Shown here piece by piece: positions 23,820-26,159 of a stretch of 28,538 bases of DNA. The position numbers were made by a program, and so were the translations under genes. The stretch covers positions 1 to 28,538 of the forward strand of contig JANTHQ010000001.1 of the NCBI GenBank assembly GCA_024762375.1. The letters run 5' to 3'. The notes beneath the pieces were generated by a model. That model worked only from the letters and a program-made list of their open reading frames with translations. It did no database searches and was not told the origin of the DNA. Numbering within the stretch: the first letter of the stretch is position 1; every line of letters starts with the position of its first letter. Origin of the DNA: Anaerolineaceae bacterium (GTDB taxonomy: Bacteria; Chloroflexota; Anaerolineae; 4572-78).

Positions 23820-26159
23820 CTATTGTTCCCGTGAAAAACCGACATTCTCCCCACGAATACCCCACGCAATCACACCCAGCGCGGCGAGCAGCCCCACCAG
23901 CGACAGCCACCCACCCCATCGAAACTCGCGCGGTTGATAGCGGAGTTCCACCGCGTGCGTCCCCGCCGACAGCGGCACGCCCATCAGCACGCCATCGGCG
24001 CGGATGAGTGGCGCGGGTTGCCCGTCCACCGTGGCGCGCCAGCCCGCATCCCAAATTTCGCTGACCACCAGCAACCCGTCCGCCCCCGCCGACACATCCA
24101 GCGACAGAAAACCCGCATCTGCCCGGCGGATGGTCACACGGTCCGGCGCAGTCGTTTCCGCCACCGGCAGCGCATCCGACACCAGCGCGGTGGTTTTCAG
24201 GTCGAAATCATCCGCCGCCAGCGCGTGCCAATCGCCGCCCTGCGCCAACCGGTGCACCAGCCACGCTCGCGGAAAAGGGTCGGTTACCTCAAAAATTTTC
24301 ACCCCATCCGATTCGAATCGCCGCGCCAGCCCGGCGCTGTCAATATCGCGGGTATCCAGCACATAGCGCACATTCAGCAATTGCCACAGCCGCCACGATG
24401 GCATTTCGGCGGAAAAAGCCGCCACATCTGCCAATTGCAGCGGGGTATTGCCGGTGATGTCTTCCAACCCGAAAACCATCGCCGCGTTATTGCCGCCGGG
24501 CAGCAACCCGCCCGACGCGATTCGTACCGGTGCGCCCGCCGTGTGTTCCTGCAAAAATTGCACGGTCGCCGTGGGGGTAAACGGTTGGCTATTGCGCCGC
24601 TCCAAATTAAATTGCCAGTTGACGGTGAACAGATTGAACGCCAGCCACACCGCCACCAGCGACATCCCCCACCAACGCCGCCAAAATCGGCGTGGGCGAA
24701 AGGCGAGCATCAGCAGCCCGCCGCCGTAAATTATCAACCCGAAAATGTGATGGCGCAGCACGCCATTGAACAGATTGACCGCGTCGCCGCGCACGTTGGC
24801 AGCCACCGCGCCATACAGATAGAGTCCGGTCAGCGCCAGCGCCACCGCGCCGACCCGGTTCGCATTTCGGGCAAAATTTTGCCATGCCGAGCGCATCGCT
24901 TTGGGCAGCGGCATCGCCAGCGCCAGCGCGCCATATCCCGCCAGCACCGCCAGCGAAAAACTGTACAGCAGGAATATCCGTTCCTGCTGGCGCACCGCAT
25001 CGAATCCGGGCAGGGTAAGATATGCCAGCGGGTACGCGAAAGTGTTCGCGCCAAAAGCCAGCACCAGCGACCCCGCCGCCACCGCCAACCAGAAGATGAT
25101 GGTTCTGCGTAATTTGCGGCGGCTGAGCGTCAGTGCGGCGGCAATCAGCAGCAGCGGCAAAATGCCGATATATTCGGGCGAGCCGCCAAAATAGCCCGGA
25201 TACAGCACCGAAACCAGTTCACTCAATGGCAATCCCCGCGACACCGCGCTGAAATTCAAATCGGCGCGGAGGGAATGGCGGATGAACGCCAATGTGGGTA
25301 TCAACTGCGCGGCGGCAATCAAACCGGCGAGGATAATGAATAGTGAATAGTGAATAATGAATAATGGGATTGGCGATTGGCGATTGGCGAATTGCTGACC
25401 GCTGAAACGCGGCTTGAAACTTGAAACCTGAAACCTGAAACCAACAAACACCCCATACGCCAATGTGAGATAGAAAATATACATTGCGGTTTGGGGATGA
25501 CCCGCCAGCACGACCATGGCGAACGCCAACGCCGCCCAGCCCGCCCGCGCCAGCGACAATCGTCGGGGCAGGCCGTCCGCCACCGCATCGAGCGTGCATG
25601 CCAGCGCCAGCATCACCCACGGCAGCCACGCACTCGCCAGCAGAATGGTCATCTGCTGCACGGGAAATCCGGTGAGATAGCCGCTGTACGTGAAGGTGAG
25701 CGATACCACCACCCCGACGAATCGCGCCACCCGCCGGCTCGCACCCGCGCGCCCTGCCCAGTATCGCCCCAGCAGATATGCTCCGACCGCTGCAATAGAA
25801 AAATGGAAAATCACCTGCCATTGGAGTGCTGTCAGTGGAAACCCGTGCCCCGTCCAGCCGAGCGCCAGCGCTTGCAGCACATGCGGCGGGTACAGCGCGC
25901 CGGATTGAATATCCGCCAGCCCCGGCTGCCCGCCGAAAATATGCGGATTCCACAGTGGCACGCGCCCATCCACCCATTCTCGCGCCGAAAATGCCCGCAG
26001 CGGGAAATACTGCTCGGTGAAATCGCCCGCTTTCAGCCACAGCCGATCGGCGGGGTTGGGGGTGATGATTCGCCAGAAAAACAGCATCGGCAACAGCGCC
26101 AGCACGGCGATGATGGTCGTTTCGAGTATTCGGTTTCGGGTTTCAGCTTTTGAGTTCAA
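23820..26159 (-). CDS. YfhO-family GT-C membrane glycosyltransferase (start uncertain; TTG inside a repeat)
   Basis: GDFTEQYFP...PLWNPHIFGGQP, AGHPQ, AAAQLIPT, many TM segments, C-terminal LVVSEIWDAGWRATVDG...GVPLSAGTHAVELRYQP. Confidence 0.85.
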   Translation of the reverse strand: MNSKAETRNRILETTIIAVLALLPMLFFWRIITPNPADRLWLKAGDFTEQYFPLRAFSAREWVDGRVPLWNPHIFGGQPGLADIQSGALYPPHVLQALALGWTGHGFPLTALQWQVIFHFSIAAVGAYLLGRYWAGRAGASRRVARFVGVVVSLTFTYSGYLTGFPVQQMTILLASAWLPWVMLALACTLDAVADGLPRRLSLARAGWAALAFAMVVLAGHPQTAMYIFYLTLAYGVFVGFRFQVSSFKPRFSGQQFANRQSPIPLFIIHYSLFIILAGLIAAAQLIPTLAFIRHSLRADLNFSAVSRGLPLSELVSVLYPGYFGGSPEYIGILPLLLIAAALTLSRRKLRRTIIFWLAVAAGSLVLAFGANTFAYPLAYLTLPGFDAVRQQERIFLLYSFSLAVLAGYGALALAMPLPKAMRSAWQNFARNANRVGAVALALTGLYLYGAVAANVRGDAVNLFNGVLRHHIFGLIIYGGGLLMLAFRPRRFWRRWWGMSLVAVWLAFNLFTVNWQFNLERRNSQPFTPTATVQFLQEHTAGAPVRIASGGLLPGGNNAAMVFGLEDITGNTPLQLADVAAFSAEMPSWRLWQLLNVRYVLDTRDIDSAGLARRFESDGVKIFEVTDPFPRAWLVHRLAQGGDWHALAADDFDLKTTALVSDALPVAETTAPDRVTIRRADAGFLSLDVSAGADGLLVVSEIWDAGWRATVDGQPAPLIRADGVLMGVPLSAGTHAVELRYQPREFRWGGWLSLVGLLAALGVIAWGIRGENVGFSREQ
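25332..25442 (-). repeat. 111-bp heptamer mosaic translated in frame within the YfhO-like gene
   Basis: (RGTTTCA)4 AGCCGCG TTTCAGC GGTCAGC AATTCGC (CAATCGC)2 CAATCCC (ATTATTC)2 (ACTATTC)2 ATTATC, encoding GFRFQVSSFKPRFSGQQFANRQSPIPLFIIHYSLFII. Confidence 0.9.

Follow-up and report, generated by a model that had tools for sequence, protein, structure and literature searches.

Rickettsia palindromic elements are palindromic units of defined length that occur as in-frame insertions in open reading frames (ORFs). Here we describe translated repeats of a different build in a window of 28,538 nucleotides, which is the entire contig JANTHQ010000001.1 (assembly GCA_024762375.1) from the genome of an uncultured hydrothermal-vent bacterium of the Chloroflexota (Anaerolineae/Caldilineae-type). 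On the minus strand of this window, a gene for a predicted YfhO-family membrane glycosyltransferase of the GT-C fold contains, in its middle, a tract of heptanucleotide units that is translated in frame. An initial annotation of the DNA had proposed that a repeat element colonized a loop of this protein and that the gain or loss of one unit could act as a phase-variation switch for surface glycosylation. Our analysis argues for an old and tolerated passenger repeat rather than for such a switch.

Several bacterial systems are built of heptanucleotides. Long simple sequence repeats (LSSR) of heptanucleotides are over-represented in bacteria, with the Calothrix heptamers as an example (Mrazek et al. 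2007, as summarized in PMC4679880 and PMC4692102). In marine Beggiatoaceae, Cyanobacteria, and Bacteroidetes, the forward copies of the direct repeat TAACTGA close all reading frames, and the reverse copies are translatable (MacGregor 2015; PMC4679880). The gene of NeuO in Escherichia coli K1 has one pure 7-bp unit, which follows the start codon directly in 2–93 copies and has been proven to switch the gene on and off; every three units encode one heptad of a basic, unstructured peptide (poly-psi), and the activity of the enzyme depends on its length (PMC3046976). The Neisseria gene pglE, which encodes a soluble-type glycosyltransferase, has an intragenic heptanucleotide tract whose phase variation is documented among isolates (PMC7157529). 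Our literature searches, directed at heptanucleotide repeats of Chloroflexi and of membrane glycosyltransferases, found no description of ordered mosaics translated in the GT-C loops of Chloroflexota.

The heptamer tract and its place in the protein

The tract occupies codons 240–276 of 779, and its four blocks are listed in Table 1 as read on the coding strand. Tandem Repeats Finder called period-7 arrays, given here for the opposite strand, at 25333–25366 (ATAATGA x4.9), 25368–25390 (GATTGGC x3.3), and 25415–25442 (TGAAACC x4), a degenerate block separating the GATTGGC array from the TGAAACC array. The identity of each base with that seven positions away (lag-7 identity) was 0.73 over 25333–25442. 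Equally long windows of the contig average 0.246 (sd 0.06), and not one of the 5686 attains 0.73. Taken modulo 7, the TGR cores fall at 4, 3, 0, and 5 in the four blocks, and the string of lag-7 matches is interrupted at every junction. While the 7-bp periodicity of the initial annotation was found again, its 16 units in one continuous register were not: the tract is four abutting arrays, about 15.7 units in total, each with its own phase. The longest perfect runs are 20–23 bp, or about three copies (at most 3.3 per array).

No inverted repeat was found inside the tract, the predicted RNA fold was not stable compared with shuffled sequences (z = −0.67), and the tract matched no Rfam family and no phage. 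On the first two results a hairpin or palindromic element was rejected, and the last two gave no sign of a known RNA family or a phage origin. The resemblance to Rickettsia palindromic elements, also drawn initially, is therefore only loose, because the tract is not palindromic. What the two have in common is a dispersed non-coding family with copies translated in frame at permissive sites of conserved genes; the tract differs from those elements in having no hairpin, in its variable length, and in being built of tandem 7-mers.

Counted from a TTG, the ORF is 779 codons long and is interrupted by neither a stop nor a frameshift, so that the reading of the tract as in-frame coding DNA (G240–I276) was upheld. 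Its start is uncertain and may be the TTG at 26159 or the later GTG of the 761-amino acid gene call in the database. The opening codons (LNSKAETRNRILET; window 26105–26170) run into the left end of the mosaic upstream, on its stop-bearing strand, and the sole TGA is out of frame. The translation matched Pfam family YfhO (PF09586) with 41.3 bits (cut-off 28.5), a match limited to the C-terminal 66 residues, and had 599 homologues in the protein collection, the best of which were full-length (E = 0). The best homologues come from metagenome-assembled genomes of Anaerolineae, Caldilineae, and Chloroflexota, several being annotated as YfhO family protein.

An AlphaFold model built from 28 input sequences (mean predicted local distance difference test score [pLDDT] 69; predicted template modelling score [pTM] 0.76) has the architecture expected of GT-C enzymes, with about 13 helices forming a membrane module, then a beta-rich domain and a last membrane helix. 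Among solved structures, Foldseek matched it to AftD (6w98; E = 5.6e-5) and then to ArnT (5ezm) and ALG12 (9s6t), with low template modelling scores of 0.3–0.4. Residues D38, D46, and D83 are invariant across the 28 aligned sequences and are candidate catalytic residues of the predicted transferase, in what would be its first extracytoplasmic loop.

Hydropathy placed membrane segments at residues 225–243 and 266–284 on either side of the tract, and the model placed helices at 222–247 and 264–281 (transmembrane helices 6 and 7, TM6 and TM7), residues 248–261 having a pLDDT below 50. The position between two membrane segments was thus recovered, but the tract reaches beyond the loop: according to the model it encodes the last residues of TM6, the entire disordered loop of some 16 residues, and TM7 up to roughly its 13th residue. 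In the alignment, the repeat-coded HY coincides with a conserved HW of the family. The loop as defined by hydropathy (244–265) contains three Lys/Arg and no Asp/Glu. By counting helices from an N-terminus set inside, and by the positive-inside rule, it probably lies on the cytoplasmic side, a predicted side shared with the basic loops at 195–198 (PRR) and 346–352 (SRRKLRR).

Table 1. Features of the window, in window positions, with the evidence for each
Feature	Position	Strand	Evidence
YfhO-family (GT-C fold) membrane glycosyltransferase gene, intact	23820–26159	minus	ORF, translation, Pfam, homologues, AlphaFold, Foldseek
Translated heptamer mosaic, whole; codes G240–I276 (GFRFQVSSFKPRFSGQQFANRQSPIPLFIIHYSLFII)	25333–25442	minus	Sequence, Tandem Repeats Finder, ORF, lag-7 identity
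Family A array, coding strand GGTTTCA/AGTTTCA x4; codes GFRFQVSSF, end of TM6 and start of loop	25415–25442	minus	Tandem Repeats Finder, period 7, 4.0 copies, 95% matches; model helix 222–247
Family C degenerate junction block, GTTTCAGC/GGTCAGC-like units; codes approximately KPRFSGQ, loop	25396–25414	minus	Sequence; pLDDT <50 at 248–261
Family D array, GCCAATC x3.3 and one degenerate unit; codes QFANRQSPI, loop	25368–25395	minus	Tandem Repeats Finder, period 7, 3.3 copies, 100% matches
Family E array, TCATTAT/TCACTAT x5; codes PLFIIHYSLFII, start of TM7	25333–25367	minus	Tandem Repeats Finder, period 7, 4.9 copies, 92% matches; model helix 264–281; alignment
Disordered TM6–TM7 loop, residues 248–263, probably cytoplasmic	25371–25418	minus	Hydropathy and AlphaFold model
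Intergenic mosaic upstream of the YfhO gene, sharing unit families with the tract; left end overlaps the first ORF codons	26132–26417		Tandem Repeats Finder
Intergenic mosaic of GTTTCAA, then CCAATCG, then AATGAC; between divergent genes	10973–11070		Tandem Repeats Finder
Array of ATTGGAG units between co-directional genes; intergenic, family D read on its stop-bearing strand	21479–21545		Tandem Repeats Finder

Orthologous loops and age of the tract

The loop was compared over 81 loci from species genomes, to which extra loci from related genomes were added. In the clade of the window (the window itself and loci L001–L006, L018, L064, and L100), every loop consists almost wholly of heptamers, from 93 to more than 200 bp, with lag-7 identities of 0.54–0.77 versus about 0.25 in the flanking coding DNA. 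The number of units and the loop peptide differ in each species of the clade, and the order of the unit families is common to all. Distant orthologues and paralogues have an Arg/Lys-rich loop of 8–15 residues with no periodicity. This is the short, repeat-free loop that the initial annotation had expected of close homologues, and the same peptide coded without nucleotide periodicity was not what the alignment showed. In a tree from which the loop was left out (80 rows), the heptamer trait runs throughout the window clade, whose divergence reaches about 0.6 substitutions per site, with at least 6–7 gains or losses overall.

The colonization of the loop by repeat DNA is therefore real but old, because the distant loops are short and aperiodic and every loop of the window clade is built of heptamers. 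The comparison indicates that the repeat entered long ago in the lineage of the window, and repeatedly across the family, and does not represent a one-off recent insertion. Across the orthologues, insertions cluster at four predicted cytoplasmic loops, at about residues 130–147, 187–219, 243–276, and 344–353. In-frame insertions of 10–44 residues, some of them heptamer-periodic, were seen at the first, second, and fourth of these in L006/L116, L008, L010/L117, L014/L118, and L026. In the same-genus orthologue L064 (85% identical), repeats of 7 and 8 bp take up 200 bp or more of the loop (L064:2150–2408) and keep the frame up to the point where the contig ends within them; the C-terminus of the protein sits on a second contig.

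Reading frame at the loop

No frameshift was found at the loop, both flanks sharing one frame in all of the 79 loci in which both are present. At least 14 of these have clear heptamer loops, and 14 of 14 in frame would have a probability of 2e-7 if the frame were free. If 30% of the alleles were off, the level taken as common at true contingency loci, the probability of finding none off among the 14 would be 0.007. Across 39 related genomes, frameshifts likewise interrupted no match at the loop, and within this genome no membrane gene is split at a tract. Two candidate broken alleles were rejected: a TAG within the match in one related genome (G013) lies at the C-terminal end and not in the loop, and in the short homologue P0120 (621 amino acids), whose loop is short and repeat-free, unrelated upstream DNA at the end of a contig cuts the protein off at residue 140. 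A scan of metagenome contigs contributed one sequence, L095, which is the same as L001, and no near-identical strain.

Assembled contigs from three vent samples carry a single allele with no ±7-bp indel, and short contigs from the three samples cover 25334–25442 or 25337–25442 without difference. As a test for length variants this identity is weak, because assembled contigs, unlike raw reads, hide rare variants.

Heptamer mosaics elsewhere in the genome

The genome to which the window belongs (2.6 Mb in 477 contigs, 67% complete; the public runs that contain the window sequence are hydrothermal-vent metagenomes) is rich in such repeats. Period 7 is its dominant tandem period, with 101 tracts against 2–13 for periods 5–11, and about 40 unit families make up its 136 exact heptamer tracts (17 bp or longer). 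Among the units are TGAAACC, GATTGGC, TGAATAG, and GCTGACC. The families of the tract were also found between genes at all three places first pointed out (10973, 21484, and 26132; Table 1).

The mosaics have a marked strand asymmetry. In 67 of the 96 mosaics, the strand bearing TGA is closed in three frames and the other strand in at most one, the latter being fully open in 37 mosaics and closed in a single frame in 30. In the peptides read from the open strand in all frames, Asp+Glu make up 2.4% and Lys+Arg+His 14.5%, and Ser, Phe, Val, Leu, Ile, and Gln are abundant; the peptides are nearly free of acidic residues in any frame because the stop-free strand has almost no GA dinucleotide. Read on this strand, the families follow the order GTT(T)CAR, GTTGCAG(G), RRTCAGC, CCAATNN, and then TTCAYTR/GTCATTN/TTTCACG. 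This order was kept in 23 of 23 family pairs from the 14 multi-family mosaics of this genome and in all ten orthologous loops inspected, although it was defined in part from the data used to score it, and the mosaic inside the YfhO gene follows it as well. Between genes, the TGA strand is the sense strand of the neighbouring genes in 68 cases versus 23, and in 21 versus 2 where the neighbours are co-directional. Mosaics within ORFs are necessarily reversed relative to this usual orientation.

LSSR and the short tandemly repeated repetitive (STRR) sequences of cyanobacteria share with these mosaics the tandem 7-bp units, the presence of several families per genome, the excess over other periods, and a dispersed and mostly intergenic distribution. 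The mosaics differ from them in being composites of fixed order and polarity, of which about one-fifth lie inside ORFs, nearly always those of GT-C glycosyltransferases, and in their host, a vent Chloroflexota. The likeness to the TAACTGA repeats is in strand behaviour: one strand with TGA closes three frames while the reverse is open, intergenic copies are mostly in the "forward" sense, and a few "reverse" copies are translated in ORFs. Here, however, there are many units instead of one, and TAACTGA is not among them. In addition, translated TAACTGA copies are peripheral in their proteins or belong to hypothetical ORFs, whereas the present tract is mid-protein, between membrane helices of conserved enzymes, and is kept across a clade.

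Long pure arrays occur elsewhere in the genome, namely (GTCAGCA) x12 at C231:162–250, (GTCAGCA) x8 at C246:3180–3243, and (TCACGAA) x9 at C174:421–489, and they are far better substrates for slippage than the tract of the window. Contig C69 begins with a flank and an array identical to those of C231. Units of 8 bp (GTTGCAGG) and of 6/12 bp (TCTATC) are interleaved with heptamers at 26234–26255 and 26345–26377 of the window, and also in L064, L018, and L003. Apart from the repeats, the window has three tRNA genes in tandem (14810–15052).

Genes that carry translated tracts

We surveyed 1188 ORFs of at least 300 codons, counting strict tracts only. A tract was present in 8 of the 26 GT-C-type ORFs, in 1 of the 150 other ORFs with at least six predicted membrane segments, and in 8 of the 1012 other ORFs with fewer than six. 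The difference between GT-C-type and other polytopic ORFs is significant (Fisher p = 6.5e-7), and heptamer tracts are about as dense inside GT-C genes as they are in intergenic DNA. The eight tract-bearing GT-C-type ORFs are the YfhO gene described here, three PMT_2/PMT genes, one further PMT gene, a DUF2298 gene, a DUF2079 gene, and a YfhO–Wzx fusion. In most of the eight with fewer than six membrane segments, the tract is at the end of the ORF or the ORF itself is doubtful. For the sole polytopic tract ORF outside the GT-C type, a feature search pointed to DUF6311/YfhO-like membrane proteins, a resemblance that we take as a lead only.

The initial annotation had suggested scanning the proteome for related peptides, and the survey gave seven further GT-C-type genes (L083–L089; contigs C110, C256, C352, C354, C362, and C375), in which the translated tracts adjoin membrane helices. 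Example peptides from these genes are KFKVQSSKFKVAISHYSLFIVHCSLF and QSAVSSQQS...SLFIIHYSLF. The idea that all tract-bearing GT-C genes share a single structural boundary was dropped, because the positions of the tracts vary between genes and the orthologue insertions fall at four separate loops.

Discussion

The observations are probably best explained by a translated passenger repeat that is filtered by reading frame, sits in a permissive and probably cytoplasmic connector, and has been inherited for a long time. The tract would be a local copy of the ordered, polar heptanucleotide mosaics found genome-wide, with the stop-free strand serving as the coding strand. The acid-free peptides of that strand, in which Ser, Phe, Val, Leu, Ile, Gln, Arg, and His abound, would suit a cytoplasmic connector of positive charge as well as membrane-helix ends. 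Units would be gained, lost, and mutated fast, presumably via slipped-strand mispairing or unequal exchange, and only lengths that keep the frame would survive, leaving a near-neutral loop highly variable in length and sequence and the enzyme intact. The repeat would then be tolerated, and not tuned as an on/off switch.

Some results weigh against this explanation. Tolerance alone accounts neither for the excess of tracts in GT-C ORFs over other polytopic ORFs, nor for a density in these genes close to that of intergenic DNA, and the invariant polarity of the mosaics also speaks against it. The arrays are not multiples of three units, and lengths of orthologous loops differ by, for example, +36 or −30 bp, which implies that past changes were compensated and allows for short-lived out-of-frame intermediates. 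The within-population test is weak, since the assembled contigs on which it rests lose rare variants, and the expression of the loop as protein is predicted from the gene sequence.

A contingency locus, in which adding or dropping one or two 7-bp units would frameshift the gene and reversibly switch a surface glycosylation enzyme, as proposed in the initial annotation, now seems unlikely. It has in its favour that 7 is not divisible by 3, that the target is a cell-envelope glycosyltransferase, that tracts are strongly enriched in GT-C genes, and that the loop evolves much faster than its flanks. Proven heptanucleotide switches also exist: like neuO (PMC3046976), the present gene has a 7-bp repeat translated in frame within an enzyme predicted to modify surface glycans, and like pglE (PMC7157529), it is a glycosyltransferase gene of a protein- or surface-glycosylation pathway with an internal heptanucleotide tract. 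The long homogeneous tract and the off alleles of those loci were not found here, however. The four arrays are short and impure, with no more than 3.3 perfect copies where neuO has 2–93, and they lie mid-gene, far from the 5′ end. No off allele appeared among the 79 loci and 39 related genomes, none of the variation documented for pglE was seen, no GT-C gene of this genome is split at a tract, and the three samples carry one allele.

It is also rather doubtful that the repeat peptide is itself useful, as a cytoplasmic connector or helix extension tunable in length or charge that would modulate activity, stability, or partner binding in the manner of the poly-psi heptads. The trait has persisted through the divergence of the window clade, its order is conserved, with Phe/Arg-rich units always after TM6 and His-x-Ser-Leu-Phe units always before TM7, and the alignment of the repeat HY with the conserved HW could be read in the same sense, as could the growth of NeuO activity with the number of heptads (PMC3046976). 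But the intergenic mosaics show identical order and polarity, which are therefore properties of the DNA element and not of the protein. Besides, the sequence and length of the loop vary freely among close relatives, 8–15 residues suffice as a loop in many orthologues, and the loop is modelled as disordered.

We consider it improbable that the mosaic acts in the gene as DNA or RNA, either as a binding array for a factor that recognizes the intergenic mosaics or as an internal site of pausing or attenuation, with its translation a by-product. The orientation bias between genes and the fixed order of families do speak for some function, or for a process with a direction, at the level of nucleic acids, and TAACTGA repeats have been proposed as binding sites for post-transcriptional regulators (PMC4679880). 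On the other hand, the genic orientation is opposite to the usual intergenic one, the tract has neither a stable RNA fold nor an Rfam match, and the binding factor is purely hypothetical. A misjoining of the repeat into the gene during assembly is very improbable. The genome is fragmented, contigs of this and related genomes end inside such repeats (L064, C69), and short contigs assembled from the public runs are interrupted at the tract. Against this, the tract is spanned unchanged by independent short contigs of three samples, and many independent assemblies have in-frame heptamer loops at the equivalent place.

Simple slippage and tolerance explain neither the preference for GT-C genes, nor why the families always keep one order, nor the strand bias; these point to an unknown process or to selection. 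One speculative and rather unlikely possibility is that the mosaics are discrete polar elements, made or spread by a dedicated repeat-generating process, with GT-C genes as preferred or selected coding targets in which they would serve as evolvability cassettes. It is raised because the order from family A to family E and the strand relation to genes are both fixed, and both are shared across genera. If it were true, hypervariable cytoplasmic connectors, or slow slippage switches, would diversify the cell surface of environmental Chloroflexota, for example against phages.

Heptamer tracts also have a practical side, as they interrupt assemblies and lead both gene callers and low-complexity filters astray; breaks at tracts, such as the end of the L064 contig in the loop, may contribute to how fragmented these metagenome-assembled genomes are. 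A systematic survey of such tracts looks worthwhile. For the glycosyltransferases themselves, a passenger origin of the tract means that a repeat unit that is not a multiple of three can persist for long inside the gene of a conserved enzyme, and can supply a loop together with the ends of its membrane helices, non-coding repeat DNA being in this way a steady source of new membrane-protein sequence.

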